Below, piece after piece: positions 10,398 to 61,153 of a stretch of 64,000 bases of DNA. The stretch comes from an uncultured Chloroflexia bacterium. Its GTDB lineage: Bacteria > Chloroflexota > Anaerolineae > CG2-30-64-16. Both the position numbers and the translations under genes were made by a program. The notes under the pieces are model-generated. The model saw only the letters and a list, made by a program, of their open reading frames with translations, was not told the origin of the DNA and searched no databases. The first letter of the stretch is position 1; each line of letters opens with the position of its first letter. The stretch lies in contig CAWEMM010000009.1 in NCBI GenBank assembly GCA_963810095.1, forward strand, positions 384,001 to 448,000, written 5' to 3'.

Positions 10398-12966
10398 ATG
10401 GGGCTTGCGAGATGACGGAAGGAGCAACCGGGCACGAAGCGGCGGAGCGCCCAACCGGGGCGCCGCTTATGATCACACGAGCATCGAGCGTAAGTGGCAG
10501 GAGCGTTGGGCGGCCGCCGATCTCTATCGCACGCCCGAGCCCGGGCCGGACCGGCCCAAGTTTTACTGCCTGGAGTTCTTTCCCTACCCGTCAGGAAGCG
10601 GGCTGAGCGTCGGGCACGGCCGTAACTACGTGCCGAGTGATGTGATCGCCCGCTATTACCGGATGCGGGGCCGCGCCGTCCTGCACCCCATGGGCTGGGA
10701 CGCGTTCGGGCTGCCCGCCGAGAACGAGGCGATCCTGCGCGGCATTCACCCTGCGGAAACCACCGTGCGCTACTCGGCCAACTACAAGCGCCAGCTGACC
10801 CTGATGGGCTGCTCCTATGATTGGGGACGCGAAATCAACTCGAGCAGGCCCGAGTTCTACCGCTGGACCCAGTGGTTTTTCCTGCTGCTGTACCGGCGCG
10901 GCCTGGCTTACCGGGCAACCGGCCGGCAGTGGTGGTGTCCCGGCTGCAAGACCGTGCTGGCGAACGAACAGGTCGACGCGGACGGCGTTTGCTGGCGCGG
11001 CCACACGGGTGTGTACAAGCGTGACATGGAGCAGTGGTACTTCCGCATCACGGCTTATGCGGACCAACTGCTGGACGACCTGGCAACTCTGGACTGGCCT
11101 GAGCACATTGTGGCCATGCAGCGGAACTGGATCGGCCGCAGCGAGGGCGTCCAGTTCGCGTTGGCGGTGGAGGGTGACGGCGGGGCAAGCGTCGAGGTCT
11201 TTACGACCCGGCCCGACACGCTGCCCGGGGTGACCTTCGTCGCGCTGGCGCCCGAGCATCCGCTGGTCGACGTGATGACGACTGCCGGGCAGCGCGCGGC
11301 AGTGGACGAATATCGCGGCCGGGCGATCCGCCGCAGCGAGGTCGACCGGATGCAGGGGAGCCGCGAGCGCACGGGTGTGTTCACCGGCTCGCACGCGGTC
11401 AATCCCGTGACTGGCGAGCGCGTGCCCGTGTATGTGGCCGACTACGTGTTGATGTCGTACGGGGCCGGCGCGATCATGGGCGTGCCCGCGCACGACGAGC
11501 GCGATTATGACTTCGCGGTCCGCCACGGCCTGCCGGTCAAGGTCGTCGTCGCGCCGTCAGGGGCGGGCGGCAACACCTCCGGAGTCTCGGGCGGCGCGTA
11601 CACCGGGACGGGCGTCATGGTCAACGCCGGCGGGTGGGACGGGCTGGCGTCTGAGGAGGCAGGTCGCCGCATCGCCGCATTCCTGGAGGAACGCGGTGTG
11701 GGCCGGCGCACCGTGCAGTACAAGATGCGCGACTGGCTGATCTCCCGCCAGCGCTACTGGGGTGCGCCCATCCCCATCGTCTACTGCCAACGCTGCGGGA
11801 CAGTGCCCGTTCCCGAGTCAGACCTGCCCGTACTGCTGCCCCCGCTGGAGTCATGGCTGCCGGGCGACGACGGGCGCTCGCCGCTGGCCGCGCTGCCATC
11901 GTTCGTCGAAACGACGTGCCCGGTGTGCGGCGGGCCGGCACGGCGCGAGACCGACACGATGGACGGCTTTGCCTGCTCGAGCTGGTACTTCCTGCGCTTT
12001 GTCAGCCCGCATTATGGGGACGGCCCGTTCGATCCGGCCGCCCTGGCCCAGTGGGGCAGCCCCGACCTGTACACCGGCGGCGCGGAGCACGCGGTGATGC
12101 ACCTGCTCTACGCCCGGTTCTGGACGAAGGTGATGGCCGACGCGGGCATCGTACCGTTCCGCGAGCCGTTCCCTGTACTGCGAAGCCAGGGCACGATGCG
12201 GGTGCGCGACGGCGGCTCGGGCGAGCTGCGCAAGATGTCGAAGTCGGCCGGCAACGTTGTGACGCCGGACAGCGTGGCCGAATCGCACGGCGGCGACGCG
12301 CTGCGCATCTATCTGCTCTTCATGGCGCCGTTTGAGAACAGCACGGTGTGGGAAGAAGAGGGAATCAACGGCGCGCGGCGCTTCCTCGAGCGGGCGTGGC
12401 GGTTAGTCGACGACGTGGCGGCCGCGGCGCCGTCCGAGATCGGCTCGGGCGAGGGGGACCGCGCTGCCGACGAGCGGCTGGCGCGTGCCATGCACCGGGC
12501 GATCGGACAGGTGACGGGCGAGATCGAACGCCTGGAGTTCAACACCGCGGTTGCGGCGTTGATGAAGTGCCTGAACGCGATGAGTGACTACCGGGTCGAG
12601 CACGGCGTCACGCGGGCTCTGACGGGCGCGGTCCGCACCTTCGTGCTGCTGTTGGCGCCGTTTGCGCCTCACATCGCCGAGGAACTCTGGGAGCGGCTGG
12701 GAAACCCCGCCGGCGACGTGTCTAGTGTGCATATCCAGCCGTGGCCCGTGTGGGACGAGGCCCTGGCCGCGGAGGAGACCGTGACGCTGGTGGCGCAGGT
12801 TGACGGCCGGGTACGCGATCGCCTGGCATTGCCCGCGGGGGCAGAGGAGGACGCAGCGGTGAGGCTGGCGCTGGCCAGCACGGCCGTGCAAAGGGCGCTG
12901 GCTGGCCGGCCGCCGGCCCGCGTCGTTTACGTGCCCGGCCGGTTAGTCAACCTGGTGACGGGGTGA
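10398..12966 (+). CDS. leuS: Leucine--tRNA ligase (start uncertain)
   Basis: 'FPYPSGSGLSVGH' HIGH-like motif, 'GWDAFGLPAEN', editing domain 'FTTRPDTL', 'DWLISRQRYWG', 'KMSKS'. The RBS-preceded ATG at 10398 is out of frame, probably an indel. Confidence 0.97.
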
Positions 12967-15052
12967 GTCGCCGGCCAGAAGGATAAGAATGGGACGCTGA
13001 TGCGACTGATTGAACTGATCTGCACGGTCTCCGGCTAGAGATCAGGCGGATCAGTCGCATCAGTTCGATCAGCGTCCCATTATCAGAAGCCGCTGTTCGA
13101 CTCACCGGCGCCCTGCCGCCCACTGTTCGATCGTTTCGGCCGCTGATACAACTGATTGGACTGATTTGCACTGTCTCCGGAAAGAGATCAGGCGGATCAG
13201 TCGCATCAGTTCGATCAGTGTCCCATTGCAGAAGCCGGTTGGCCTCCTCCAGCAGCAGCTTGCGCTGCGCTGGCGTCGGCTGGCCGGCCGCGAAGGGCAG
13301 TTGCACGATCTCGTCGAAGATCGCGGCCAGCGCGCCCACTCGCTCGCGGCGTGTCGGCAGCTTCGCCCCCGCATCGAGCATCCGCTCGTAATGGATCACC
13401 TGTGGCGTCAGCCGCTCGGCCAGCAGCGCCTCGAACGCCTCGATGCACCCCTCGAACGGCGCGACCTGCGCCAGCCATTCCTCGCCGAGCCGGTTCCGCT
13501 GCTCCGGCGTCACCCGCCGGATGGGTTCCAGGTCGGCCGGGTCGTCGACGACGAAGTAACCGAGCGCTTCGAGCACGGCCAGGTTATTCTTAACCATCGT
13601 GCGTCGCTCGGCCTGGCCGCCGTCCGGCCCAGGGGCGTCCAGAAGCGCGGTCGCCTTCAGCTTGCCGTCGAGGCGCAGCCGCGGCACGAAAAGCGCCCGC
13701 GTCCGGCCGCCTTCCTCGGTCACGAAGATGTTCTGCGTGTGGTTCTTGATGCGGATGCCGTTGCCAAAGCGCAGGTCGTACTCGTCGTGCTCGTGGTGCG
13801 ACCGGTCCGCGTTCAACTCTTCCCAGTGCCCCGCGACCTTATCCGCGACAAAGAGCAGGTCGGCGCGGTCGCGTGCCACCCCGTCAGACGCCGCAATCTC
13901 ATAGACCGGCATTGGCCAGTCAAGCCGGGTGACCGTAACATCATCAAGGCGCGCGACCGCCCTCTGGGGCTGCGCCCTGAGCACGGGGATGTCGGGGAGC
14001 TTGAAGAACTGGTAGTGCTGGTGATAGATCGTGTTGCCCGCCCAGTGGTTGCAGACGCCGCTGACGGGCGTGGCTTCGGGGTCCGCGCCGTACCGCTCGC
14101 AGAACGCGCGTATGTCACGGTTGATGACCGATACGAGCGTAATCAGGTCGCTGAACGAGTACGACTGAGGGTCCATGTTCATGACCAGGTCGTTGATATG
14201 CGGGAAGTCCCAGGCCAGGAAATGGCACGCGGTGCGGGGGTCGCCCAGCGGCGCATAGGTGAATCCGAAGCGGTAGTTCCGCACGGTCGCGCGCACCTGC
14301 CCTTGCGGCTCACTGCCGGCGTGGACCGGCGTCGAGTGGATGGTGGCCTCCCGCGGGTTGAGCACCGCGACGGAGCAGTAATTGCACGACGACTTGTACT
14401 GGATCGTTCCCCAGATCAGCTTTCGCAGGGGCTCGTAGCGCTGTGGCAGGATCAGGGCGTCTTCGCGCAGGAGCGGCCCGTCCATCTTGACGTAGACCGG
14501 GCGCCGCGATCGCTCGATCATGCGCTTCGCCGTCGTATCCTTGAACTGGATCTGCCGGTTGTTAACGTCGGCACGGATGAGGATGCCCTGCAACTCCAGG
14601 TGGTGCAGGATGGCCGACACGTCGGCCACGGTGAAGGGGCCTCCGCCTTCAGCGTTCAGCGCGTCCAGGTCGAAACTGAACGTACCGATCAAGCCGTCCT
14701 CGTGGTAGATGAACTCGACGGGATCGGCCTTCGGGTTCATGATGTGCAGCCGGCGCAGCTCGGCCTTGTTCCCACGGATGCGCCGGATCGGGATGTGGAC
14801 GAACGCGAAGCGGTCGCCCCCGGCGGGGACCTCTGGGTCGGGGATCACTTCGATTTGCTTCTCCCCTTCCACAACCGGGATGTGTCCGATCCTCAGCCCG
14901 TGGAGGTGGGCGACCGCGACGGCGATGCCCAGACCATGCTCGGCCAGCACGTCGCGCAGCAGCTCGCCAACAACTGCCATGTTCGTTTCAGAAATCAGCC
15001 GGCAGCCGGGCGCATCGAAAAGCTGCTCCAGCACTTCCTGCAGGGTAGGCAT
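12947..15052 (-). CDS. Hypothetical protein with HIT/GalT-like HxHxQ motif (DUF4922/nucleotide phosphorylase-like); 3' end reads through repeats
   Basis: 'SSCNYC' and 'NHWAGNTIYHQHYQFF'. Good codon usage down to about 13230. Confidence 0.7.
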   Translation of the reverse strand: MPTLQEVLEQLFDAPGCRLISETNMAVVGELLRDVLAEHGLGIAVAVAHLHGLRIGHIPVVEGEKQIEVIPDPEVPAGGDRFAFVHIPIRRIRGNKAELRRLHIMNPKADPVEFIYHEDGLIGTFSFDLDALNAEGGGPFTVADVSAILHHLELQGILIRADVNNRQIQFKDTTAKRMIERSRRPVYVKMDGPLLREDALILPQRYEPLRKLIWGTIQYKSSCNYCSVAVLNPREATIHSTPVHAGSEPQGQVRATVRNYRFGFTYAPLGDPRTACHFLAWDFPHINDLVMNMDPQSYSFSDLITLVSVINRDIRAFCERYGADPEATPVSGVCNHWAGNTIYHQHYQFFKLPDIPVLRAQPQRAVARLDDVTVTRLDWPMPVYEIAASDGVARDRADLLFVADKVAGHWEELNADRSHHEHDEYDLRFGNGIRIKNHTQNIFVTEEGGRTRALFVPRLRLDGKLKATALLDAPGPDGGQAERRTMVKNNLAVLEALGYFVVDDPADLEPIRRVTPEQRNRLGEEWLAQVAPFEGCIEAFEALLAERLTPQVIHYERMLDAGAKLPTRRERVGALAAIFDEIVQLPFAAGQPTPAQRKLLLEEANRLLQWDTDRTDATDPPDLFPETVQISPISCISGRNDRTVGGRAPVSRTAASDNGTLIELMRLIRLISSRRPCRSVQSVASASHSYPSGRRLTPSPG
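12988..13227. repeat. Two tandem family A periodic palindromes (12988-13081, 13139-13227)
   Basis: Near-identical 'GAGATCAGGCGGATCAGTCGCATCAGTTCGATCAG(C/T)GTCCCATT' right arms. The first copy has termini AATGGGACGC/GCGTCCCATT. Confidence 0.85.
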
Positions 15053-15171
15053 GGTCGTCAATCCTTTCCGCCCCAAGCTTAGCACTGGGCAGACGCGGCG
15101 GGCAAGCGGTGCGCGCCGCTTGCGTTCCTGCTTCCGGGGTAGTAGAGTGGTGGCATCCCGGAGGTGACGAA

Positions 15172-18469: not shown

Positions 18470-19234
18470 CTAGCCCGGCGCGGCGGCGGCCATCGCTTGC
18501 GCCGCGCTGCGTCGCCGGCACTCGGGACAGAGGCCCCAGCGGTCATCGCCCGTGCCGGTCAAACCCGCCAGGAACGCCATGGGCTCCGGCGCGTAGGGGC
18601 GTCCGCAGCCCGGACACGGCTTGAGCGGTACGACGGTGTCCCAGAGCCGCAGCCGGCGTTCTCCTGCCCCATCCTCGACTCGAACTGCGCCGGTCGGGCA
18701 GACCGCCGCGCACGCGCCGCACCCGATGCAGGCGTCTGACTGGACGTGGAACGGCGCTGCAACCTCCCGGCCCGGGCCTCGGCCCATGAACCCGATTGCG
18801 GCCGCGCCCACCAGGTCACGGCATACCCGCACACAGAGCCCGCACAGCACGCACAACTCGTCCGGCTTGCCGCTGCTTGCAAAGCGGGTCGAGTTGAGCC
18901 CTGCCTCCGCGGCCAGGTCTTGGATGAGGCTCGACGTGGGGCAGCGGGCGAGCAGGAACTCCAGCATCATCGTGCGGGCCGCCACCGCGGCCGGTGCGCG
19001 GGTGTCCACCACCAGGCCCTCGGCTGCAGGATGGGTGCAGGCGGCCGCGACCTGCCCCGGCCCCTCCTCCGCGGCACGCGTTTCGACCAGGCATAGGCGG
19101 CACGCGCCGTAGGCCGGCAGGCCCTCCCAGTGACACAAGGTCGGCAGGTGGACGCCTGCGAGACGGACAGCATGCAGGACGGTCGCGCCGGGCGGGACGG
19201 TGACGGGTTGGCCGTTTACGATCAGCGTTGGCAT
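18470..19234 (-). CDS. Fe-S subunit, NuoG-N/HoxU-like (2Fe-2S + 4Fe-4S)
   Basis: 'LPTLCH...GACRLCLVE...AAC', 'CVLCGLCVRVC', 'CIGCGACAAVCP'. Confidence 0.88.
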   Translation of the reverse strand: MPTLIVNGQPVTVPPGATVLHAVRLAGVHLPTLCHWEGLPAYGACRLCLVETRAAEEGPGQVAAACTHPAAEGLVVDTRAPAAVAARTMMLEFLLARCPTSSLIQDLAAEAGLNSTRFASSGKPDELCVLCGLCVRVCRDLVGAAAIGFMGRGPGREVAAPFHVQSDACIGCGACAAVCPTGAVRVEDGAGERRLRLWDTVVPLKPCPGCGRPYAPEPMAFLAGLTGTGDDRWGLCPECRRRSAAQAMAAAAPG

Positions 19235-19246
19235 CTCCGCACCTCC

Positions 19247-20989
19247 TCAACTCACGCCCGGCCCTGCCGGAGCGCACTTGCCCGCGGGGCACCGGTGCTC
19301 TATCACGTGCGCCTCGTACTCGTCGCGGAAATAGCGCAGGGTTGAGAGAACCGGGTTCGGGGCGGTCTGGCCCAGGCCGCAAAGCGAGCCGGCCTGCACC
19401 GCCGCGCTCACCTCCTCCAGCAAGTCCAGGTCCGCGGGTCTGCCCTGTCCTTGCGTGATCCGCGTGAGGATTTCGCGGAGGTGCCGCGTGCCCTCGCGGC
19501 AAGCCGTGCACTTGCCGCACGACTCGGCCTGCGTGAACTCCAGGAAGTAGCGTGCGACATCTACCATGCATGCCGTCTCGTCGAGCACGACCATGCCGCC
19601 CGAGCCCATGATCGAGCCCGCCGCCTTCATGCCCTCGTAGGTGACCGGCCGGTCGAAGAGGCTGGCTGGCAGGCAGCCTCCCGACGGGCCCCCGGTTTGA
19701 ACCGCCTTGATGCGGCGGCCGTCTCGCCCACCGCCACCGATGTCCTCGAGCAGCGTCCGCAAGGGCATGCCCAGCGGCACCTCCACCAGGCCGGTGTTGG
19801 CCACCTGGCCGACGAGCGAGAACACGACCGTCCCCGCATTTGCGGGCGCGCCGATCGAAGCGTACCACTCGGCGCCTCGGGCGAGGATGACCGGGACGGT
19901 CGCCCATGTCTTGACGTTGTTGATGACCGTCGGGCGGCCCCACAGCCCGCTCTCCGCGGGATACGGCGGCTTCGGCCGGGGCTCGCCCAGTCCGCCTTCG
20001 ATGGAGGCCAGCAGCGCGGTCTCCTCGCCGCACACGAACGCGCCCGCGCCGCGTACGAGCTTGAGGCTGAAGCTAAAGCCCGAGCCGAGGATGTTCTCGC
20101 CGAGCAATCCGTTGGCTTCGGCTTGCTCGATGGCCCTGGCAAAACGCTCGACGGCGAGTGGGTACTCGTCGCGAATGTAGGCGAAGCCGAGCGTCGCGCC
20201 GGCTCCGTACGCGCCGATAATCATCCCTTCGATCACGCTGTGCGGGTCCGACTCCAGCACCGTGCGGTCCATGTAGGCGCCGGGGTCGCCCTCGTCGCCG
20301 TTGCAGACCAGGTACTTCACGTCGCCGGCCGCAATCCGGGCGAGGCGCCACTTGCGCCCCGTGGGAAAGCCCCCGCCGCCTCGCCCCCGCAGCCCAGACG
20401 CGACGATCTCGTCGACGACCTGGTCGGGGGCGACGTGTGCCAGGGTGCGCTCGAGCGCGGCGTACCCGCCCCGCGCGACGTATTCGGCCAGGCTGCCCGG
20501 GTCGACGTACCCGCAGTTCCGGAGCACGATCTTCTGCTGGCACTCGAAGAAGGGGATGGCCGCCAGCGACGCCAGGGCCGCGCTGCCCTCGGGCCTGGGG
20601 AAACGGTGCGGGGGGCCAACCGGCGGCGTGCGTTCCTCGTCGATCACGGCCCAGGCGCGTTCGGTGGGGAGATCACCCCGTGCGAGCGAGTCGACCACCG
20701 CTCGGGCAGTTGCCCGGGTGACCGACTTGTACAGAACGCGGCCGCAGCCGGGCATCCGCACGTCGACCAGCGGCTCGCCCTGGCAGTAGCCGATGCAGCC
20801 GGTAGTCGACAGGACGGCGTCGAGCCCGCGCTGCGCGATCCGCTGTGCCAACGCCTCGTAAACCGCCCCGGCGCCCGCGGCCCGGCCGCAGGTCGCCATC
20901 CCAACCGTGATCTTGATGCGATCGGGGTACAGGGTCGCGTCGCCCGTTGCGGCCAGTTCCGACAGGGTCGGGTGGACTGCCGCGTTCAT
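19247..20989 (-). CDS. NADH/FMN-binding subunit, NuoF/HoxF-like
   Basis: 'GLRGRGGGGFPTG', 'CNGDEGDPGAYMDR', 'GAFVCGEETAL', 'ESCGKCTACREG'. N-terminal thioredoxin-like 2Fe-2S domain. Confidence 0.92.
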   Translation of the reverse strand: MNAAVHPTLSELAATGDATLYPDRIKITVGMATCGRAAGAGAVYEALAQRIAQRGLDAVLSTTGCIGYCQGEPLVDVRMPGCGRVLYKSVTRATARAVVDSLARGDLPTERAWAVIDEERTPPVGPPHRFPRPEGSAALASLAAIPFFECQQKIVLRNCGYVDPGSLAEYVARGGYAALERTLAHVAPDQVVDEIVASGLRGRGGGGFPTGRKWRLARIAAGDVKYLVCNGDEGDPGAYMDRTVLESDPHSVIEGMIIGAYGAGATLGFAYIRDEYPLAVERFARAIEQAEANGLLGENILGSGFSFSLKLVRGAGAFVCGEETALLASIEGGLGEPRPKPPYPAESGLWGRPTVINNVKTWATVPVILARGAEWYASIGAPANAGTVVFSLVGQVANTGLVEVPLGMPLRTLLEDIGGGGRDGRRIKAVQTGGPSGGCLPASLFDRPVTYEGMKAAGSIMGSGGMVVLDETACMVDVARYFLEFTQAESCGKCTACREGTRHLREILTRITQGQGRPADLDLLEEVSAAVQAGSLCGLGQTAPNPVLSTLRYFRDEYEAHVIEHRCPAGKCAPAGPGVS

Positions 20990-21426
20990 CGCCGGTACCT
21001 GGCCAGGATCTCGTCCAGCCCGCTGGGCGTGAGCTGTCCGTACGTATCCTCGTCGACGCGGACCACCGGCGCCAGCCCGCACGAGCCCACGCAGCGCACG
21101 CGCTTGAGCGTGAATTCGTTGTCCGCCGTCGTTTGGTCGGGGCCGATGCCGAGGCCCGCCTCGAGCCGTGCCAGCAGCTCGGCCGAGCCCCGCACGTAGC
21201 ACGCCGTGCCCTCGCACACGTGGATCTTGTGCCTGCCGCAGGGGCGGAACGTGAATGCGGCATAGAACGAGGCCGCGCTCACCATTTGGCTCAGCGGCAC
21301 GCCCAACTCGGACGCCGCGGCGCGCACCGCCTCGACGGGCAAGTAACCGTGCTGCGCCGTGATCTCGTGGAGCGCGGCCAGGACGGCGCCCGGTTCAGGT
21401 ATCTGGTAGGCCTGGCTTGGGAGCAT
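20986..21426 (-). CDS. 2Fe-2S subunit, NuoE/HoxE-like
   Basis: 'GYLP', 'VCEGTACYVRG', 'RCVGSCGLAP'. Confidence 0.92.
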   Translation of the reverse strand: MLPSQAYQIPEPGAVLAALHEITAQHGYLPVEAVRAAASELGVPLSQMVSAASFYAAFTFRPCGRHKIHVCEGTACYVRGSAELLARLEAGLGIGPDQTTADNEFTLKRVRCVGSCGLAPVVRVDEDTYGQLTPSGLDEILARYRR

Positions 21427-21443
21427 GGAAGGCCTCCTGGTGG

Positions 21444-23183
21444 CTATGGGTTCATCTCATACTGTCCGGCCAGCCCATACACGGAGCCGCGCCACACCCG
21501 GTCGAAACGCGCCGGGTTCGCGACCGGCTTGCGGACCATCTTCAGGCACAGTTCCATCTGCGCCGCGGTGCTGCTCGGCTTGCCGTAGAGCTGCACGGCG
21601 TACTTCGAAAAGTCGCGCACCATGAAATCGAAGATCTGGTCGACGGTGTCGCCGTCAATCGCGTAGAGCCTGGCGTTTTCGAGGACCAACTGGCCGTAGA
21701 CCACCAACGTGAACAGCTCGCCCAGCGCCAGCAGGAAGTCTGTGTCCTGTTGCTGCGCGTCGCTGGGTGTGGCCGTGGCCAGGAGCGTCTTGAGCGCCCG
21801 GATCTGCTCCTTGAAGACGGCTGTATTGGGGACGTCGTACAGGTCATAGGCCGGGCCGTAGTCGTGGAAACGGATTTTGCCCAGGCCGTGCGCCGGCCCC
21901 TGGTCGAACAGGAAGTCGTCGTTGCGGGGCTCGTTTACCGTCGGCACGGGCGGATACTCGGCCGGTGCGAAGAAGTAGTTCGCCATGAACTTGACGATCA
22001 GGGCGATGTTGACGTGCACCGTGCCCTCGAGCTTGGGCAGCGCCCGGATGTCGCGGGCCGCCATCTCGAAATACATGTCCCGCTCGAAGCCCTTGGCTGC
22101 GATGACGTCCCACAGCAGGTTGATAACCTCCTCCCCCTGGGTGGTCACCTTCATCTTGACGGTCGGGTTATAGAGCAGGTAGCGCCGGTCGAGGGGCGAC
22201 GCGACCCGCATATAGTCGGCGGCCCGCAGCGCAAACAGCTTCATCGCCAGCAGCCGGGCATACGCGTCGGTGAACATCTGGCGCACGTGGGGGAAGTCGG
22301 TGACTGACATGCCGTAGAGGCGCCGGCCCGCTGCATGGTTGATTGCTTCGTAGAGCGCGTGCGTGCAGATGCCGATCGAGGCCCACCCCAGGTTGTACTT
22401 CCCGATGTTCACCGTGTTCAGCGCGGCGTCCCAGGCCGCATCGCCCCGGGAGAGGATATCGGCCTCCGTTACCGGATAGTCGCGCAGGGCGAAGTTCGCA
22501 ACGTAGTTCTGGCTGTCGGTCACATTTGCGATCAGGTCGTAGCCCCGGTTGCGGTAGTCGGCTGCAAAGAAGACGTACTCGCCCGTTCCGGCCAGCTTGC
22601 CGAAGGTCGACACCATGGGCGCAGCGTTGCCGTTGCCGATGTAGTACTTCTCGCCGTTCGCCAGATAGGTTCCATCGGACTGCGGCGTCAGGCACATCTC
22701 GGTCGAGTAGACGTCCGCGCCGTGCGCTCGCTCAGAGAGGCCGAACGCGAAAACCTCGCCTTCCTTCAGCAGCCGGGCCGCCCTGCGCTTGGCGTCCTCG
22801 TTGCGGCTCTGCCAGATGGGGCCAAGGCCCAGGATCGACACCTGCCACGTATACCAGTAGGCCAGCCCGTAGAAGCCGAGGATTTCGTTGAACTCGCAGA
22901 TGCGCCAGGTGTCCCAGCGGGCGTGCGGCCCACCATAGCTCGCGGGCGTCAGCAGGTCCGCGAACAGCCCGGCGCGCTTCTGGAACTCGATGAAGTCGGC
23001 GTACCACACCCGCTTCTGGTCGTCGGCCTTGAGCCGGCGCTTGCCCTTATCTTCGAAAAACGCGATCGTCTCGCGCATGATCTCGGACGAGCGCTCGTCA
23101 GGGTAGGGCCGGGTATGCGCCTTGGGATTGAGCAGGAGCGCACCACCCGTTAATGGCGCACCATTGGTAAATGGCGTAGTCAT
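21444..23183 (-). CDS. Acyl-CoA dehydrogenase family protein
   Basis: 'AFGLSERAHGAD', 'NGEKYYIGNG', 'LPKLEGTVHVN'. Its ATG overlaps the cooS stop. Confidence 0.9.
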   Translation of the reverse strand: MTTPFTNGAPLTGGALLLNPKAHTRPYPDERSSEIMRETIAFFEDKGKRRLKADDQKRVWYADFIEFQKRAGLFADLLTPASYGGPHARWDTWRICEFNEILGFYGLAYWYTWQVSILGLGPIWQSRNEDAKRRAARLLKEGEVFAFGLSERAHGADVYSTEMCLTPQSDGTYLANGEKYYIGNGNAAPMVSTFGKLAGTGEYVFFAADYRNRGYDLIANVTDSQNYVANFALRDYPVTEADILSRGDAAWDAALNTVNIGKYNLGWASIGICTHALYEAINHAAGRRLYGMSVTDFPHVRQMFTDAYARLLAMKLFALRAADYMRVASPLDRRYLLYNPTVKMKVTTQGEEVINLLWDVIAAKGFERDMYFEMAARDIRALPKLEGTVHVNIALIVKFMANYFFAPAEYPPVPTVNEPRNDDFLFDQGPAHGLGKIRFHDYGPAYDLYDVPNTAVFKEQIRALKTLLATATPSDAQQQDTDFLLALGELFTLVVYGQLVLENARLYAIDGDTVDQIFDFMVRDFSKYAVQLYGKPSSTAAQMELCLKMVRKPVANPARFDRVWRGSVYGLAGQYEMNP

Positions 23184-25078
23184 ATCCCCAGCCCCGCCCG
23201 CCGTTCCTTGAGCGCCATAACCAGCTTCTGCGCCGCGCAGATCGGGTCCGGCTCGACGATGAAGTAGCCGCCGAGCAGGTCCTTGGCAGTCTGCGTCAGC
23301 ACTTTGACTACGAGCGGGCTGCCGGTGACCGGCGGCACCACGCCGACATGGGTCGGCAGGCCCAGGGCGACGGCCCAGGTGCCGATCGAGACGGCCTTTT
23401 CCATCGCGGCCTCGGGCGCGGTGGCCACCACGGGGAGCTGGCTCACATCCACGCCGAGCTTGTTCGCGAGCGCGGTGGCGATGGCGGCGGCCCGGGTGTT
23501 GTCCACGCACGAACCCGTGTGCAAAGTCATCGGGAGGGGCGCGCCCAGGCCCGCGGCGTTGCCCAGCGCCGTCAGCACCGCCTTCAACCCGGGGCCGGCG
23601 TATTTCTCGGTGGCAGCCGGGGTCATCAAGCCGTGGCGTGCGAAGGTGCCGGCCGCGCAGCCCGTGCAGAGGATCAGCACGTTCTCGCGGACGAGTTCCT
23701 TCACGAGCGTCACGAAGGTCTTGTCCTGCGTGATCTTCACGTCGTTGCAGCCCGCGAACAGGCACACGCCCAGGATATTGCCGTTGACGATGTTGTCGAT
23801 CAGCGGCTTCAGCGGGTCGGCCGGGTCGACCAGGGACAACACCTTCACGATGGTTTCGACGGACATGCCGGCGAGCGCGTCGTTGGTGACGGGCGGGATA
23901 TTGATTTTGTTTGGATCCCGACGACCGTATGCCTCGATGGCGAGCCGCAGGATGTCTTGCGCCCGTTCGCCGGCGTGCGCCTCGTCGAACTCGACGTGCG
24001 TCGCGCCGGGGATCTTCGCAATGGACATGGTGGTGACGATCGCCGTGTGATAGCGCTTCGCGACCTCGGGCAGGCTGGGCATGATGCACTGGTAGTCGAC
24101 GACGGCCGCGTCGAGCGCGCCCGTCACGATGGCCAACTCTTGCGAGAGCGAGTTCGTCGCGCTCGGAATGCCGTGGCGCATCATCACCTCGTTGCCCGTA
24201 CAGCAGATGCCGACGATGTTGAATCCTTCGGGCGCGCCTGCCGCGACGGCCGCGTCCTTCATTCGGGCGGCTTCGGCGACGATGATTTCGCTGAGCACGG
24301 GGTTGTGGCCGTGCACGGCAACGTTGACCGCGTCCGCTTTCAGGCAGCCGAGATTAGCGCGGGCCATGACGGGCGCCGGCGTGCCGAAGAGGATGTCTGA
24401 CAGATCGGTGGCCAGGTACATGCCCGTGTAGTCGCCGACCGCGCACTTGATCGCGCCGAGCAGGATATTTACCGGGTCGGCGTCGACGCCGTTGGTTGTC
24501 CGGTGCATGACCTCGGCGACGGCCGAATCGAGGCCGGGCGGAACCAGCCCGAACTGCTCCAGCTTTGCAAAGCGCTGGGCGGTGACCGTGGTTTTGAGCC
24601 AGACTGGGGGCGTCTCGCGTTCGGAGAACTCGTCGAGCGCCAGCCGGGCTAACTCGCCGGCGAGGGCTTGATCGCTCTTGCCGTCCCTGGCAATGCCGAC
24701 TCGGGCGAGCACGGCGGCGAACTTGTCTTGGTCTTTGATGCCGTAGTCGGGCGCTTCCCCCCGGCTCCACTTGAGCAGGGTGTGCGCCAGGTGCTTGGCG
24801 TGGGCCGAGTGGGACGATGTGCCGCCGGCAATGCTCCGGGCCAGGCCGCGGGCGACGATGGTGTCGGCGTTCGCGCCGCAGATGCCGAGCTGAGGGCCGG
24901 TCGTGCCGAACGGGTCGATGCGACACGGCCCTTGCAGGCAGTGGCGGCAGCAGAGCCCTGTCTCACCGAAGCCGCACTGGGGCAACTGCGCCTCGTAGCG
25001 ATCCCAGGCCAAGTTGATTCCCGCCGATTGCGCGGACTTGAGCATGAGGATGGAATCGGGACTGATCGAGCGTTCCAT
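23180..25078 (-). CDS. cooS: Anaerobic Ni-containing carbon monoxide dehydrogenase catalytic subunit
   Basis: D/B-cluster 'CGFGETGLCCRHCLQGPC..CGA'. C-cluster ligand motifs HGHNP, GICCTG, DYQC, AGCN, TGCA, GSCVDN, plus 'EKA' lysine. Confidence 0.96.
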   Translation of the reverse strand: MERSISPDSILMLKSAQSAGINLAWDRYEAQLPQCGFGETGLCCRHCLQGPCRIDPFGTTGPQLGICGANADTIVARGLARSIAGGTSSHSAHAKHLAHTLLKWSRGEAPDYGIKDQDKFAAVLARVGIARDGKSDQALAGELARLALDEFSERETPPVWLKTTVTAQRFAKLEQFGLVPPGLDSAVAEVMHRTTNGVDADPVNILLGAIKCAVGDYTGMYLATDLSDILFGTPAPVMARANLGCLKADAVNVAVHGHNPVLSEIIVAEAARMKDAAVAAGAPEGFNIVGICCTGNEVMMRHGIPSATNSLSQELAIVTGALDAAVVDYQCIMPSLPEVAKRYHTAIVTTMSIAKIPGATHVEFDEAHAGERAQDILRLAIEAYGRRDPNKINIPPVTNDALAGMSVETIVKVLSLVDPADPLKPLIDNIVNGNILGVCLFAGCNDVKITQDKTFVTLVKELVRENVLILCTGCAAGTFARHGLMTPAATEKYAGPGLKAVLTALGNAAGLGAPLPMTLHTGSCVDNTRAAAIATALANKLGVDVSQLPVVATAPEAAMEKAVSIGTWAVALGLPTHVGVVPPVTGSPLVVKVLTQTAKDLLGGYFIVEPDPICAAQKLVMALKERRAGLGI

Positions 25079-25092
25079 TCGTTTGCCTCCGG

Positions 25093-25671
25093 TCAGCTAT
25101 TCTCTTGGGCGCTGAGAAGCACATCCTCGCGCACCTGCCGCGCCGACGCCAGCACCTCACCGGCGCGCTCGCGCGACGCCCGTGCAAAGTCGTCGCCTTC
25201 CTGGAAGAGGAGAGCGCCCGTGGGGCACGCCGACACGCAGGCCGGCACGGGGCGATCGGGACACAGGTCGCACTTGACGGCCATGACCCGGGAGCCGGCC
25301 GGCGCATTGGCATCGGTGACCGCGGCCCGGCCGATCATGCCGAACGGGCAGGTCATCACGCACATGCCGCACGCGATACACGCGTGCTTGCCGCCGGCAT
25401 TGGTGACTTCGTCGCGCGGGCCGCGATGCATCACTTGCGGAATGCACGCGGCGATGCACGGCGCGGGATCACAGTGGCGGCAGGTCATGGGTAGCTTGGT
25501 GACTTCGAAGGGGGCAGCGGCGACGGCGTGGACGTAAATGCGGGTGTGCGGCGGGGGCGACTCAATCATGGCCCCCAGGAGGTTTTGGCTGCTGGAGTGC
25601 GCGACAGCGCAAGCCAGCTCGCAGGTTTTGCAGCCTGTGCAAAGCTCAGGACGGACGAAGAGTTTCTTCAT
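25093..25671 (-). CDS. cooF: CooF-like 4x[4Fe-4S] electron transfer protein
   Basis: 'CTGCKTCELAC', 'CRHCDPAPCIAAC', 'CIACGMCVMTCP', 'KCDLC..PACVSACP'. Lies directly upstream of cooS. Confidence 0.88.
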   Translation of the reverse strand: MKKLFVRPELCTGCKTCELACAVAHSSSQNLLGAMIESPPPHTRIYVHAVAAAPFEVTKLPMTCRHCDPAPCIAACIPQVMHRGPRDEVTNAGGKHACIACGMCVMTCPFGMIGRAAVTDANAPAGSRVMAVKCDLCPDRPVPACVSACPTGALLFQEGDDFARASRERAGEVLASARQVREDVLLSAQENS

Positions 25672-25789
25672 TGACAACCCTCCTGTGAACGCGGTGCGGG
25701 CTTCGTTGGCGAAGCGCGCACGATAGAGGCGGAGGACGCCGGTCGGAGGAATGGTTCACAGCACAGTCAGTGTGCGATTGTCTGGCAGG

Positions 25790-25818
25790 AGTATACTGCA
25801 GGTTTTTAGAGCGGGCAA
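25790..25818 (-). promoter_or_regulatory. Sigma70-type promoter of the coo operon
   Basis: TTGCCC-17 bp-TATACT on the minus strand. Confidence 0.5.
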
Positions 25819-26300: not shown

Positions 26301-27153
26301 TCACGCGCGCTCCGCGACAAATGCCACGCCCAGCATCCCCGTGCCGGTGTGCACTGACAGCCCCGCGGTGAGGCCGGTGAAGATGATCTCAGGGCAGGGC
26401 AAGGTCGCGCTCAGCGTCTCGGCAAACGCCTTCGCCTCGTCCAGGGCGTCGACGTGCACGACCGCCAGCCGCTCGATGCGGCGCTCGCCGAGCGTGCTCT
26501 TGGTCAGTTCCACCACTCGGGCCAGCGCCTTGCTGCGGGTGCGCACCTTTTCCAGCAGGTCGAGCTTGCCGTCGCGCAGCGTCAGCACCGGCTTGACCCC
26601 GAGCAAGTTGCCCATGCCCGCGGCCAGGTAACCCACCCGGCCGCTCATGGCGAGATACTTGAGCGTGGCGAGCGCCCCGTACACGTACGCCCGCTGCCCC
26701 ACGTCGCGCGCCGCTCCGACAACCTGCTCGACCGTCGCGCCCGCCTGCGCGGCCTCAGCTGCGGCGAGGCACATGAAACCCTGCGCCATCGTCACGCTCT
26801 GCGTGTCCAGCACCACGATCTGGCATTCGGGCAGCAGATCGCGCGCAGCCAGCGCCGCGTTGAAGGTCGCGCTCGATGGCCGAGCTGACGCAAAGGCACA
26901 CGATCGCATCCGCGCCCCCGGCAATGGCGTCCTGGAACGCCTGGAGGAACTGCCCAACGCTGGGGGCCGATGTGGTGGGCAGCTTGCCCTCCCGGTCGAC
27001 CCGCGCGAACAGTTCGGCGTCGCTGATGTCGACCTCGGTGAGGAAGCTCTCCTGTCCGAAGAGGACGCTGATCGGCACCTGCCGGATGCCGTATTGGGCG
27101 GCCAGGCCAGCGGGAAGGCTAGCGTCGGTATCCGTCACGATGGCGATCTTCAT
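26301..27153 (-). CDS. DegV family fatty acid-binding protein (frameshift near 26870)
   Basis: 'KIAIVTDTDASL', 'PTTSAPS', 'LKYLAMSGR', 'VHTG'. Confidence 0.88.
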
Positions 27154-27377
27154 AATTCCTCCAGGCCCGATGAAAAACACGAGTGGGCGCAGTCCCCGAT
27201 TGAGAAGCATGGGAACGCTGCTCGTGGATAGATTGTATCATACCTCCGGGCAAAGGCAGCGCGCGGGCTCGTGGTGGGCGCCGCCCACGCGCCTCGTCGC
27301 TGCTAATGGAAGTGGCACAGCGGGGGAAAACAAAAAAACCCCACCGTAAAGGTGAGGTTACGGGCTTACGCCCAGAA

Positions 27378-28469: not shown

Positions 28470-28574
28470 GGCACGCGCTTCCCGCTTCAGGACGAATTGC
28501 CCATTGATTCCCGTGCCAAAATGCACTATGATCTTGGCTGAGGGGAATTGGACCCCAACGAGAGGAAGTGCAGT

Positions 28575-29726
28575 ATGACCGCGCCAGACAAGCCGACCTT
28601 CTCGGACCTCCTCAACATCGCCCTTGATGCACTGAAGATGTGGCCGCCGGACTACGTCCGGTCGATCCTCGGACCGGTGAGCACGTGGCTCCCGCCGCAG
28701 AATCCGTATTCCGAGTTCACCGTGCTCGATCCCTGGCGCCTGCGTCGGGCGCTCAAGTACCTCGTCGACGTGACCGTGCCCTCATTCTCGGGCGCGCCAC
28801 CGCCGTTCCTCGCCACTCTCATGCCGCCCTTCCTCGAAGACCTGTTCTTCGTGCAAACCGAGGTCCTGCATCGCCCGGACTACTATGCCGACTACACGAG
28901 CTTCCCGCGCGAGAAGTGGTTCTTCATCAACGGCATCCTGACGAACGGCGACGTGGCACAACTCAACGCGGCTTGCATCTCCTGGCTGTTCCACCGGCCG
29001 GTCACCTTGATCCAGAACGCGACCGACGGCGCAGTGCGCGACCTGTACGAATGTGCACTCGGCAAGGAGTGGTACCGGGATACCTCAAACACCGAGGCGG
29101 CGCGGATTGCGTTTCCGGCCATCTACGATGCCCTGACCGACCCGTCCAAGGACAAGGTAGTCGTCATCTGCCATTCGCAGGGCACCATCATCATGGCGGT
29201 TGTGCTGGCCGCGCTCGAGATGCTGCACCGCGCCGGGGACGGATCCCGCGGGCTGGACGAGGGCGCGCCCCTGCCGATTCCGCTGGACGAGGCGGACCTG
29301 GATTTGGGCGACTTTGCTGCACTGACCCCCGAGCAGTGGGAGAAGCTAGAGGTCTACTTCTTCGCGACGTGCGCGAACGAAATCCGTCATCATGCCTGCG
29401 TGGCCGGGCCGCGCCCAGTGCCGTGGCTCGAGCATTTCGGCAACGAGCGCGATCTCGTCGCTCGGCTGGGCATGTTCGCGCCCGAGGCTGACAAGTGCGG
29501 CGTCCACATTGAAGGGGCAACTTATATTCGCCGCAGCGCCTGGGGCCACCTGCTGAACATCGACTACCTGCTGCCGATTGCCGCGGAGCAGAAGCGAGGG
29601 CGGCGACGCGGCGGCCGGTGCGATTCCGAGCCCTTCAGCCTCGTCGAGGCAGAGCCGTACGGGTACACGGACATGCCGCGCCTCTTCGATTACATCAACG
29701 GGGGCTCACCGCCCGACTGGCCGTAG
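28575..29726 (+). CDS. Hypothetical alpha/beta hydrolase-like protein
   Basis: 'WFFINGI', nucleophile elbow 'CHSQG', 'NERDLV', 'GHLLN'. Confidence 0.7.
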   Translation: MTAPDKPTFSDLLNIALDALKMWPPDYVRSILGPVSTWLPPQNPYSEFTVLDPWRLRRALKYLVDVTVPSFSGAPPPFLATLMPPFLEDLFFVQTEVLHRPDYYADYTSFPREKWFFINGILTNGDVAQLNAACISWLFHRPVTLIQNATDGAVRDLYECALGKEWYRDTSNTEAARIAFPAIYDALTDPSKDKVVVICHSQGTIIMAVVLAALEMLHRAGDGSRGLDEGAPLPIPLDEADLDLGDFAALTPEQWEKLEVYFFATCANEIRHHACVAGPRPVPWLEHFGNERDLVARLGMFAPEADKCGVHIEGATYIRRSAWGHLLNIDYLLPIAAEQKRGRRRGGRCDSEPFSLVEAEPYGYTDMPRLFDYINGGSPPDWP

Positions 29727-54334: not shown

Positions 54335-54426
54335 TGTTCAAACGTGTTTTGGGTGATTGACAAACGTGAGCAGTGGTGCTAATCTGTGCATGCAAATAGT
54401 GAATAGCATGATTCACAAACGTGAAT
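54335..54426 (+). promoter_or_regulatory. Sigma70 promoter with overlapping operator repeats for the BMC operon
   Basis: TTGACA (54357)-17 bp-TAATCT with extended TG. Palindrome ATTCAC-AAAC-GTGAAT (54411-54426) and two more CAAACGTG copies. Confidence 0.75.
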
Positions 54427-54468
54427 GACCTCTTCCATTCATCGGCGTCTCACGGAGATTACACCACT

Positions 54469-56581
54469 ATGGATATTGCCACCGCAGAGATGACGCAGGA
54501 CGCGGCCCACCGCGACGGCGGGCCACGAGAATCGAACCTTTCCCGCGAGCGTCTCCTGGAGCTGTTCTACAAGATGACCCTCACGCGTGCCTTCGAAGAG
54601 GCCGCGTGGAGCCAGTACGGCCTCGGTAAGGTACACGGGACGATGCACCTGTGCATCGGCCAGGAGGCTGTAGGCATTGGAGCCATTGCCGCGATCCGGC
54701 CCGACGACTACATCGTTTCCACCCACCGCGGCCATGCCCACGCCATCGGCAAGGGGCAAGACGTGCGCGAGATGATGGCCGAGCTGCTGGGCAAAGAGAA
54801 CGGCGTCTGCCACGGCCGGGGCGGCTCGATGCACATGGCCGACGTGAACCTGGGCAGCCTGGGCGCGAACGGCGTGGTGGGCGGGGGCTTGCCGCTGTCG
54901 GTCGGTGCGGGCCTTGCACTCAAGCTGAAGCACCCGACGGGTGATTCGCCGGTGGTGATCTGCTTCTTCGGCGACGGCGCCTCAAACGAGGGCGCGTTCC
55001 ACGAGTCGATCAACATGGCTTCCGTGTGGAAGCTCCCCGTGATCTACCTCTGCGAAAACAACCAGTACGGCATGTCGAACTCGGTCAAGAACGCCATGAG
55101 CGCCCGCCAGATGATCGACCGGGCCCCGGGCTACGGCATTCCCGGCAAGCAGGTTGACGGGATGGACGTGCTGGCGGTCTACGAGGCGATCAGCGAAGCG
55201 GCCGAGTACGTGCGAGCGGGCAACGGCCCCATCCTGATCGACGCGCTCACTTACCGCTACCTGGGGCACTCGAAGAGCGACCGGCAGCTTTATCGGACGA
55301 AGGACGAGGTCGAGGCCTGGAAGCAGCGCGATGCGATCGCCGCCTTCGAGCGTTACTTGCTGAGCGCCGGCGTTGCCTCACAGGACGAACTGGACGCCCT
55401 CAAGACGAAGGCGGACGCGGCCATCGAAGAAGCCATCGCGTACGGCGACGCCGGGCCCGAGCCGCAGGTGGCCCACCTCATGCGCGACGTATACGCCGAA
55501 GACCCGGCCGTACTGGCACAGCCGGAGCGGGTCTTGCCCAAGTGGGCGTCCGCGACATTCGGAACCGCGACCCGCATCAACCCGCCCGCAGGCGAGCGGG
55601 TGATCACCTACTCGGAGGCGCTGCGCGAGGCGATGGCCCAGGCGCTGTCCTCTGACCCGAAGGTATTCATGCTGGGCGAGGATATCGGCGTGTACGGCGG
55701 TGCATTCGGCGTCACAAAGGACCTGGTGGAGGAGTTCGGCCGCGACCGCGTGCGCGACACGCCGATCTCGGAAAACGCGATCATCGGGGCTGCCACCGGC
55801 GCGGCGGTGCTGGGCATGCGGCCGATCGCCGAAATGCAGTTCCAGGACTTCATCACGCTGGGTATGGAGCAGACGGTGCTCCAGGCCGCCAAGATTCGCT
55901 ACATGTTCGGCGGCAAGGCGACCGTGCCGATGGTCGTGCGGATGCCGGCCGGCTCGGGCACGGGCGCGGCTGCGCAACACTCGGAGAGCCTCGAATCCTG
56001 GTTCCTGAGCGTGCCGGGCATCAAGGTGGTGGCGCCTGCGAGCGCGTACGATGCCAAGGGGCTGCTGCTGGCCGCGCTGGCCGACGACAACCCGGTGATG
56101 TTCGTCGAGAACAAGCTGCTGTACAAGAGTAAGGGCGCAGTGCCCGTCGAGCCCTACATCGTGCCGCTGGGCAAGGCCGCGGTGCGCCGCCAGGGCCAGC
56201 ACGTGAGCATTGCGGCGACGTCGATCATGGTGCACCGGGCGCTCGAAGCGGCCAAGCAGCTGGAAGCCGAGGGCGATCGAGCTCGAGGTCATCGACCTGC
56301 GCACGCTGAAGCCGCTCGACAACGAGACGATCATCGCCTCGGTCAAGAAGACCGGGCGCCTGCTGGTGGTGCACGAGGCGCCGCTGTTCGGCGGCTTTGG
56401 CGGCGAAATTGCGGCCATGATTGCCCAAAGCGAGGCCTTCGCGTACCTGGAAGCGCCCATCGTGCGCCTCGGCGGCGAAGACGTGCCGATCCCGTACAAC
56501 CCGAAGCTGGAAAAGGCCGCCGTACCGCAGGTCGATAACATCGTCGCCGCCGCACGCAAGCTCGCCCGGACCGAGATCTAG
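54469..56581 (+). CDS. Fused E1 alpha/beta ThDP-dependent dehydrogenase (acetoin/pyruvate dehydrogenase-like; frameshift near 56275)
   Basis: 'STHRGH', 'GRGGSMH', '[12 protein letters not shown]', 'YRYLGHS'. Beta part 'GEDIG.YGG', 'DTPISE', 'AAQHS'. Confidence 0.9.
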
Positions 56582-56675
56582 AATGGGACGCAGATTGAAC
56601 TGATTCACTGATCTTCCTGATTTTATCAGCGAGGTCATGCGAATCGACTCAGTCAGTTAGATCAGGCGTCCTATT
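56582..56675. repeat. Family A periodic palindrome
   Basis: AATGGGACGCAGAT ... ATCAGGCGTCCTATT. Starts right after the stop codon. Confidence 0.75.
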
Positions 56676-56686
56676 AGGGGTACGAA

Positions 56687-59477: not shown

Positions 59478-59894
59478 ATGAGCCAGTCCAATATCGACCT
59501 GGTCCGCCGCTACTACCAGGTCACGAGCGGCGATCTCGCTGGGATCGAGGAGATCGTTTCCCCCGACTTCATCGACCATCACTTCCCCCCGACCCTGCCG
59601 CAGGGTCCTGAGGGCGTCAAGGCGTTCTTCAACGACGTCCTCGGCGCCTTCACCCACCGCCGAATTGACATCTTCGACATCTTCGCGGCGGAAGACCGCG
59701 TCGGCGTGCGCTTCGAGCTTGTCGCCAACCACAGCAGCGAGTTTGCCGGCTACAAGCCGTCTGGACAGCAGATTACATGCGGCGCCATGAGCATGTTTCG
59801 GGTAGAGGACGGCAAGCTGGCCGAGGGCTGGGAAACAGCCGACCTGTTCGGCCTGTTCAAGCAGCTCCAAGCCCTGCAGACCGTAGCCGCCTAG
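59478..59894 (+). CDS. SnoaL-like/ester cyclase (NTF2-like) protein
   Basis: 'SPDFIDH', 'AAEDRV', 'FRVEDGKLAEGW..D'. Confidence 0.88.
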   Translation: MSQSNIDLVRRYYQVTSGDLAGIEEIVSPDFIDHHFPPTLPQGPEGVKAFFNDVLGAFTHRRIDIFDIFAAEDRVGVRFELVANHSSEFAGYKPSGQQITCGAMSMFRVEDGKLAEGWETADLFGLFKQLQALQTVAA

Positions 59895-59898
59895 GGAT

Positions 59899-59962
59899 TC
59901 AATACAAAGGCACAAAGGCACGACGGCATAGATAACCTTTGTGACGTAGTGTCGCCGTGTTG
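59899..59962. repeat. Family B periodic palindrome
   Basis: CAATACAAAGG CACAAAGG CACGACGG ... CTTTGTG ACGTAGTG TCGCCGTGTTG. Confidence 0.65.
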
Positions 59963-59989
59963 AGCGCTGCCGACGAAGGAAGGTCGAAG

Positions 59990-61093: not shown

Positions 61094-61153
61094 GCGCGTT
61101 CGGCTTGGCGCCGGGCACAGCCCCGTGCCAAGCCGAACAATACAGGAGGAAGA

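Follow-up and report, generated by a model that had tools for sequence, protein, structure and literature searches.

A carbon monoxide dehydrogenase operon of the CodhABCSF type with a shortened BfuB subunit and a lineage-restricted acyl-CoA dehydrogenase gene in an uncultured Chloroflexia bacterium

The operon and its gene products

The window analysed here is a stretch of 64,000 nucleotides from an uncultured Chloroflexia bacterium (GenBank assembly GCA_963810095.1, contig CAWEMM010000009.1, positions 384,001 to 448,000). Its minus strand carries six consecutive genes for a Ni-containing carbon monoxide dehydrogenase (CODH) with its electron-transfer subunit, an acyl-CoA dehydrogenase (ACAD) and a NuoEFG-like trio, here called BfuCBA. 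These are cooF (25093-25671, 192 amino acids (aa)), cooS (23180-25078, 632 aa), the ACAD gene (21444-23183, 579 aa), bfuC (NuoE/HydC-like, 20986-21426, 146 aa), bfuB (NuoF/HydB-like, 19247-20989, 580 aa) and bfuA (nuoG(N)-like, 18470-19234, 254 aa). The order of the genes and the ATGA overlaps of cooS with the ACAD gene (23183-23180) and of nuoE with nuoF (20989-20986) agree with the original prediction, which was made from the letters alone. Judged by its sequence, the operon is a CodhABCSF-like variant which falls outside the Bfu family in one point, the lack of the B3/B4 domain in BfuB.

CooS scores 706 bits against the NCBIfam CODH model TIGR01702 (cut-off 478). As had been predicted, all cluster ligands are kept: C35/C43 of the D-cluster, C44/C47/C52/C67 of the B-cluster, H258/C293/C331/C444/C474/C524 of the C-cluster, and also H90/H93 and K561. 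The closest PDB match is CODH-II from C. hydrogenoformans (822 bits), followed by 1jqk (796 bits) and by 6t7j, 6b6v and 6ytt (at most 570 bits); judged by these best PDB matches, CooS is clade F-like. The criteria for Ni-CODH group F-1 were taken from the group table of PMC6344411. CODH-II belongs to clade F and can be produced without maturases (PMC13056359), so the absence of cooC beside cooS is not odd. CooF is a subunit of the WorS/HycB type with four [4Fe-4S] clusters and a C-terminal extension; it matches Fer4 Pfam families, its best PDB matches are HycB4, WorS (9mqx_E) and HycB3, and its 16 Cys are invariant across 19 orthologues.

The best full-length PDB match of BfuA is WorA of the WorABCSL complex (9mqx_A, E 2.6e-47). 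BfuA has no catalytic domain. It contains the motifs for one [2Fe-2S] and two [4Fe-4S] clusters (A1, A2 and A4, with A3 absent) and a C-terminal Zn finger (C207/210/236/239) followed by an adaptor helix, which are the features of the WorA type (Type 2); 17 of 17 listed Cys are conserved across the rows of the short-BfuB clade described below. WorA itself has A1, A2 and A4 without A3, and recruits WorS by its C-terminal Zn finger and helix (PMC12318220). A docking model of CooF with BfuA scored 0.70, while the best of three controls scored 0.00; BfuA residues 237-250 lie at the interface, the contacts agree between runs to at least 61% and the partner pLDDT is at least 80. Among solved pairs 116 of 157 attain the mark used for docking, against 2 of 215 among mismatched pairs. 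Since a related complex is already solved, the model shows likeness, not binding.

BfuC (PF01257) has the C1 [2Fe-2S] ligands C71, C76, C112 and C116 of Bfu-family BfuC proteins. BfuB matches PF01512, PF10589 and PF10531, and its top PDB matches are the Bfu-family B subunits 9n5u, 9bov, 7t2r and 8oh5. The FMN/NAD site and the B1 [4Fe-4S] ligands (C491/494/497/537) are conserved as in that family. The B2/Zn site (C474, H561, C567, C572) aligns to 9n5u and has the expected three Cys and one His for Zn or [2Fe-2S], and three N-terminal Cys (34/65/69) of a putative B5-type site stand as in the Nfn-type B subunits 9n5u, 9bov and 8oh5; a site of this kind binds [2Fe-2S] or Zn (PMC12018979). The three motifs associated with bifurcation by Losey 2020 (A/E232-x-M234, F367, GGPSG) are found as A238-x-M240, F318 and GGPSG at 433-437. 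The protein ends 8 residues past C572, and the C-terminal 2x[4Fe-4S] domain (B3/B4) of the Bfu family is missing, as had been noted before.

Conservation of the five-gene unit

A CooS search of genome contigs, of which the best 80 of 551 matches were kept, and a search of 61 related genomes delivered the loci for comparison (loci are labelled L, genomes G). The titled relatives are mostly from Chloroflexota, to which the host would accordingly belong. Distinct other genomes of the window's CooS clade in which the interval between cooS and nuoE is visible account for 18 orthologous operons; outside this count stand L060, where the operon is broken after cooS, and L035 and L046, whose contigs end in cooS. 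The order cooF-cooS-nuoE is found in 17 of the 18, with 4-292 nucleotides (nt) between cooS and nuoE, and in L047 four unrelated open reading frames (ORFs) fill this slot. An ACAD gene in the slot was seen in none of the 18. The conserved unit is thus cooF-cooS-bfuC-bfuB-bfuA; the ACAD gene is optional and missing from most relatives. On inspection the flanking genes of the orthologous operons show no common pattern. In their records bfuB of L049 and bfuA of L048 are frameshifted. The operon of L060 (10928-14894) looks broken by insertion: behind cooS come an unrelated 678-aa ORF, a second copy of the cooS 3' end and an ORF resembling a transposase.

Loss of the B3/B4 domain

Among the closest 120 BfuB homologues, ranks 1-110 are 544-593 aa long and have no ferredoxin domain, while ranks 111-120 are 626-628 aa long and possess it. 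The three bifurcation motifs are kept in 110/110 short and 10/10 long proteins, and the B2 C-terminal motif and the B5-type Cys in 110/110 short ones. The short BfuBs form one clade (support 100/99; 19 short rows sampled), which is sister to the long forms. A B3/B4 gene split off between bfuB and bfuA was considered and rejected, as the gaps of -20 to 79 nt leave no room for it in 12 of 12 loci.

The operons of the long sisters came to light when the class was searched, where 21 of 401 genomes gave matches at E 1e-200 or better. The loci L255-L259 and L280, the latter from the window's genus, have the order cooF-cooS-bfuC-bfuB(long)-bfuA, with a BfuB identity of 65-67%. Their CooS proteins are only 47-48% identical to that of the window and match best to 6t7j, which we take to be the Thermococcus clade E CODH. 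Thermococcus-type enzymes are placed in clade E (PMC13056359). In quick trees BfuB and BfuA unite the short forms and their long sisters (99 and 96), whereas CooS and CooF split them; in the CooS tree six rows labelled "noBfu" derive from short loci, and L010 does carry Bfu genes. Because the BfuB and BfuA trees join what the CooS and CooF trees part, and because the synteny is shared, we infer that one lineage started from a full Codh-Bfu operon, lost B3/B4 a single time and, before or after this, replaced its clade E-like CooS/CooF by a clade F-like pair.

The relatives of the replacing CooS stand mostly in operons of cooS, cooF and a FAD-NAD oxidoreductase (FNOR) gene. Behind six related cooS-cooF pairs tested, the next gene is FNOR-like in five, and the sixth encodes a membrane subunit of the energy-converting hydrogenase (ECH) type. 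Clade F CooS and BfuB truncation are not tied to each other in general, since at the more distant loci L096, L102 and L119 a clade F-like CooS stands together with a full BfuB. Two of these three records are deltaproteobacterial and one is from Firmicutes; at positions 229 and 320, which are C in the others, M and S are found in L096 and L102.

Full-length Codh-Bfu operons with B3/B4 and a clade E-like CooS were seen in Chloroflexota at L255-L259, L262 and L280 (genomes G044, G090, G132, G180, G133, G120 and G005). In the cooS-bfuC-bfuB clusters L264 (G050) and L266 (G267) BfuB is a long fusion which replaces the plain B3/B4 (GltD/DPD-like in L266, about 1,100 aa in L264). They would be a third type of CODH-Bfu output, possibly NADP-linked.

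Proposed reaction and the question of bifurcation

We consider it slightly more probable than the contrary that the five-subunit complex is a non-bifurcating CO:NAD+ oxidoreductase of the CodhABCSF type, without a ferredoxin branch. It would be a soluble complex in which CO is oxidised and NAD+ reduced. CO oxidation would take place at the C-cluster of CooS, where the chemistry is known and the ligands are present, and the electrons would pass from the B- and D-clusters to CooF. According to the model the Zn-finger helix of BfuA would recruit CooF, as WorA does WorS, and by analogy with 9MQX the path would continue over A4-A2-A1 to B1, FMN and NAD+. A CO:NAD(P)+ oxidoreductase made up of CooS, CooF and the NuoEFG-like trio had been suggested in the original prediction, and this suggestion is strengthened by the conservation of the five genes, the match to WorABCSL and the CooF-BfuA model. 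Electron transfer from CO to NAD+ was computed at -39 kJ/mol. Because this reaction is downhill it needs no coupling, and the enzyme may act as a one-way CO scavenger supplying NADH to a cell that holds a separate CODH with acetyl-CoA synthase (ACS).

A further argument is the net charge of BfuC's C-terminal domain, which ranges from +2 to +7 in 9 of 9 loci with B3/B4 (a count that leaves out L266 with its GltD-type BfuB fusion) versus -4 to +3 (mean -0.5) in 17 loci of the short clade. In NfnABC from T. sibiricus ferredoxin sits between the BfuC C-terminal domain and B3/B4, the ferredoxin-reducing arm (PMC12018979).

Several observations weigh against this reading. The A/E-x-M, F367 and GGPSG motifs, together with the B2/Zn and B5-type ligands, persist in all 110 short BfuBs, and these motifs mark bifurcating enzymes, while the characterised non-bifurcating enzymes differ there (PMC7311640). 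The missing C-terminal domain is no longer proof of non-bifurcation: according to a preprint (bioRxiv 10.64898/2026.06.25.734504), HoxEFUYH from Synechocystis bifurcates and shows slow uptake with NAD+ only, with a HoxF that has no C-terminal ferredoxin domain and keeps the three motifs. The B5 domain is more basic in the short clade (mean net charge +0.7 vs -2.5 in 15 long rows), with the substitutions E50R in 107/110 and P92R in 106/110 short BfuBs, and it could have become a new ferredoxin site. Moreover, the charge shifts go back to one evolutionary event, so that their counts are not independent of each other, and the success of the CooF-BfuA docking may stem from resemblance to the solved WorA-WorS pair.

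The alternative built on these observations is bifurcation as in Hox, in which the CO electrons would be split at FMN/B1/C1 between NAD+ and free ferredoxin, with transient docking of the latter near B5/C1 and without a tethered B3/B4. The retained motifs and ligands, the HoxF precedent with its basic patches near E1/F2 described in the same preprint, the two basic substitutions in the B5 domain and the genome's two ferredoxin-like ORFs, which are acidic and of the 2x[4Fe-4S] kind, all speak for it. Nevertheless, the basic surface of the BfuC C-terminal domain is lost, the motifs, which form the lining of the FMN/NAD pocket, could be retained for that role alone, and the basic gain in BfuB could merely match the acidic gain in BfuC. 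HydABC from S. wolfei, which has no B3/B4, is non-bifurcating (PMC11406978), and the Hox result comes from a single preprint. In addition, no RnfC that could use the extra reduced ferredoxin scores above the cut-off in this genome, which is 88.5% complete. On balance we regard this alternative as tentative and rather unlikely. Still more doubtful is the idea that the trimmed module represents a second, independent origin of tether-less bifurcation, with the CO electrons split between NAD+ and free ferredoxin by use of the newly basic B5 domain, and the NADH being drained into enoyl-CoA reduction in the sub-lineage that carries the ACAD.

The acyl-CoA dehydrogenase

The ACAD (PF00441, 63.5 bits, above cut-off) has the PKLEGT motif, which is found in 119 of 120 homologues, and its E386, the putative catalytic base, lines up with the EG motif in ACADs of solved structure. 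The N-terminus is 14 residues longer than in most homologues, so that translation would begin at the ATG within the cooS stop. The protein belongs to a large and widespread subfamily of about 565 aa (7,994 of the 8,000 candidates that were scored reach E 1e-100), of which one Atlas cluster is named FadE4. This genome counted, the subfamily is present in 25 of 401 genomes of the class, 3 of 61 relatives and 2 of 37 genomes of the order.

The original prediction had considered the ACAD as a possible partner of the CODH, which does not hold in general. Apart from its absence in all 18 other orthologous operons, 16 of 20 distinct genomes with the operon or parts of it have no ACAD match at all, and four have the ACAD at other loci. 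This synteny rejects the ACAD as a conserved subunit. The opposite extreme, an accident of one genome, is rejected by G026 and L123. In G026, which belongs to a different genus, ACAD-nuoE lie on one contig and cooF-cooS on another, and since both contigs end within genes their join may be inferred. Between the window and G026 the synonymous divergence (dS) is 0.75 for the ACAD gene, 0.84 for cooS, 0.90 for cooF and 0.96 for nuoE, and the ratio of nonsynonymous to synonymous divergence (dN/dS) of the ACAD gene is 0.11, which indicates purifying selection. The notion of a chance insertion is therefore borne out as far as the 18 operons go, but not by the operon-like divergence next to nuoE in G026.

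L123 is the only one of 80 metagenome loci of the ACAD with an operon gene beside it, a nuoE start of 36 codons at the same spacing; upstream lies a glycosyl hydrolase gene, not cooS. At L123:2165-2553 this nuoE start runs into nitroreductase-like sequence, which makes it look like a copy of the junction that has decayed or been rearranged. At the other 79 metagenome loci, many of them on short contigs, and at 25 of 25 class-level loci operon genes are absent beside the ACAD, and a scan of 80 ORFs showed a mixed set of neighbours. One clade of 11 rows (98) takes in the three ACADs that lie next to nuoE. Two members of this clade come from contigs equal in size to contigs with short BfuBs (405,490 and 61,895 bases), an indirect indication; the DNA context of P0233/P0003 was not found in 401 genomes of the phylum.

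In the CooS tree the ACAD-less G035, G002 and G006 nest among the carriers (97/95 and 100/100), so the ACAD gene was apparently lost or recombined in some genomes; in the NuoE tree, by contrast, the window pairs with G026, though with weak support (90). Taken together, the sequences suggest one old insertion of a functional, lineage-restricted ACAD, retained in some genomes and dispensable in others. In the non-bifurcating scheme the ACAD would be a co-transcribed passenger of one sub-lineage. ACADs hand electrons to electron-transferring flavoprotein (ETF; PMC5861303), and the ACAD of the operon probably uses an ETF encoded elsewhere. Its retention over a dS of about 0.75-0.96 is long for a neutral passenger and counts against this part of the scheme.

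It is also conceivable, though quite improbable, that the ACAD is no subunit but physiologically coupled to the complex in this sub-lineage, with electrons from CO passing via NADH and ETF to the ACAD as an enoyl-CoA reductase and CO-driven electron sink. The translational coupling to cooS, the position next to nuoE in G026 and to the nuoE 5' fragment in L123 within one clade, the dS and dN/dS values matching those of the operon genes and the two pairs of equal contig sizes are all consistent with such a role, and reducing crotonyl-CoA with CO would yield -98 kJ/mol. However, G002, G035 and G006 have no ACAD in the operon or elsewhere in the genome, which means that it was lost or never fixed, the slot in L047 is taken by unrelated ORFs, nearly all other ACAD loci have no operon gene and mixed neighbours, and the operon has no etf. 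An etfAB pair next to the dehydrogenase, as in Bcd-EtfAB or CarCDE-type systems, was not found, and all four ETF matches of the genome lie on contig C6. The idea of a true sixth subunit, which receives electrons directly from CooF/BfuABC in place of ferredoxin or ETF, or which reduces CO2 with electrons from acyl-CoA, is hardly credible despite the position inside the operon with its ATGA coupling: operons without ACAD share the B3/B4 loss, so that the ACAD did not replace this arm, the protein is an ordinary subfamily member without extra FeS or ETF domain, and acyl-CoA oxidation coupled to CO2 reduction, which the original prediction had offered as one option, was rejected at a cost of +98 kJ/mol (potentials from PMC5861303 and PMC9304861).

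Junctions, flanks and the rest of the genome

A 221-base contig of run X1, possibly the source sample, covers positions 22998-23218 across the cooS/ACAD junction with 0 differences; as far as this one test goes, an assembly artefact is ruled out. A candidate sigma-70-like promoter (TTGCCC-17-TATACT, 25790-25818, minus strand, 9/12 consensus match) precedes cooF, and its -10 hexamer with the next bases is also present upstream of cooF in L042 and L035. The scan for terminators gave a chance-level result (5 found vs 4.3 expected).

The operon is flanked upstream by an ABM-like gene (below the Pfam cut-off) and a DegV gene and downstream by VOC/glyoxalase and DinB genes; genes for ACS, hydrogenase, cooC, cooA or Etf do not occur in these flanks, as had been claimed. 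The DegV gene (26301-27210, minus strand) is split over two frames (ORFs of 218 and 151 aa), probably by a frameshift or sequencing error. Elsewhere in the window three ORFs have no Pfam match at E 1e-5: one of 712 aa (12947-15085, minus strand) with the HxHxQ-like motif HQHYQ, one of 392 aa (28548-29726, plus strand) with the GxSxG-like motif CHSQG, and one of 506 aa (59891-61411, minus strand). HQHYQ may correspond to the motif of HIT/GalT nucleotidyl hydrolases. Genes for a 2-oxoacid dehydrogenase E1 (fused alpha/beta) and E2 are located at 54421-58141 (plus strand).

Genes for ACS and, along with it, for a second CODH are present on other contigs of the genome, as are two ETF loci and genes for NiFe hydrogenases. 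The genome contains seven ACAD matches, and the ETF matches stand beside other ACADs. A gene for a putative CooC/AcsF-like ATPase with the CxC motif of this family lies in the ACS cluster (C6:929146-929892); NCBIfam assigned no CooC name to it. ORF inspection of contig C10 (G000:C10:52816-61851 and 71101-83939) revealed two more NuoE/F/G-like clusters with BfuB fusions of about 1,065 aa, one together with a NiFe hydrogenase pair, the other with a gene resembling formate dehydrogenase and with Hdr/Mvh-like genes in the vicinity.

Significance and comparison with known systems

Bifurcation by the Bfu core and its need for B3/B4 are still debated, and no CODH-Bfu complex has been purified so far. 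In the short clade nature has deleted B3/B4 and left all other hallmarks in place, and the full-length sister shows an identical gene order. Together with the clade E-like full-length sister in the same genus (G005) it offers a natural deletion pair for testing the role of B3/B4. The known range of Codh-Bfu widens from a few Firmicutes to the Chloroflexota, where both forms occur within one genus. The operon suggests that these organisms have a CO sink linked to NAD+, and cofactor regeneration driven by CO could make use of a CODH-II-like enzyme connected to NAD+. Of all parts of the operon, the ACAD is the least general.

The original prediction had missed that a CODH with this trio was already proposed as Codh-Bfu or CodhABCSF. 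The latter, built like WorABCSL, is described as a prediction and not purified (PMC12318220, Feng 2025). The Codh-Bfu of Schut 2022 comprised four sequences, from Firmicutes only, and that study selected its set on the 4Fe-4S domain and treated B2-B5 as defining (PMC9304861); although filtered in this way, its sequence table could hold related entries. BfuBs without B3/B4 are already published for hydrogenases (PMC11406978), and in the text available from PMC6344411 Nuo-like genes near CODH are noted only within the Wood-Ljungdahl group. A literature search, mostly of open-access texts without their supplements, found no CODH-Bfu without B3/B4, no Codh-Bfu in Chloroflexota and no ACAD in a cooS operon. 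While the combination of CODH and BfuABC has already been published as a prediction, the new feature is a BfuB that ends after B2/Zn without B3/B4 and keeps the motifs.

An identity with HoxEFU was rejected, since the models stay below their cut-offs (HoxE 130.8 of 224 bits, HoxU 112.5 of 333 bits) and no hydrogenase is adjacent; BamGHI was rejected by context only, as no bam or hdr genes are adjacent. The non-bifurcating, NADH-dependent HydABC of S. wolfei also has no B3/B4, but shows T/S-x-K/S/A, Tyr367 and no GGPSG (PMC7311640), where the present BfuB keeps the bifurcating-type residues. The CooS-CooF-FNOR operons (PMC6344411) host close relatives of the window's CooS and likely carry out the same net CO:NAD+ reaction, however with a single FAD enzyme in place of the NAD+-reducing FMN/FeS trio. 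Cyanobacterial HoxEFU(YH) has in common a B subunit that has no C-terminal ferredoxin domain but shows the three motifs and, here putatively, a [2Fe-2S] domain at the N-terminus; it differs in that no hoxYH is adjacent here, the input is CO through CooF, and BfuA is of the WorA type. With WorABCSL from Acetomicrobium mobile (9MQX) the complex shares the architecture of BfuA, a WorS-like FeS subunit, a B2 site of apparent Zn type and the predicted docking by the adaptor helix, whereas WorABCSL has a tungsten aldehyde oxidoreductase instead of CooS, and a WorB with B3/B4 and a requirement for NAD+ and ferredoxin together. In gene content the operon resembles CodhABCSF/Codh-Bfu, where CooS, CooF and BfuABC stand in one cluster and BfuA is of the WorA type with Zn finger and adaptor helix; the operon described here is set apart from it by the BfuB without B3/B4, the Chloroflexota host, the clade F-like CooS and, in some members, the ACAD.

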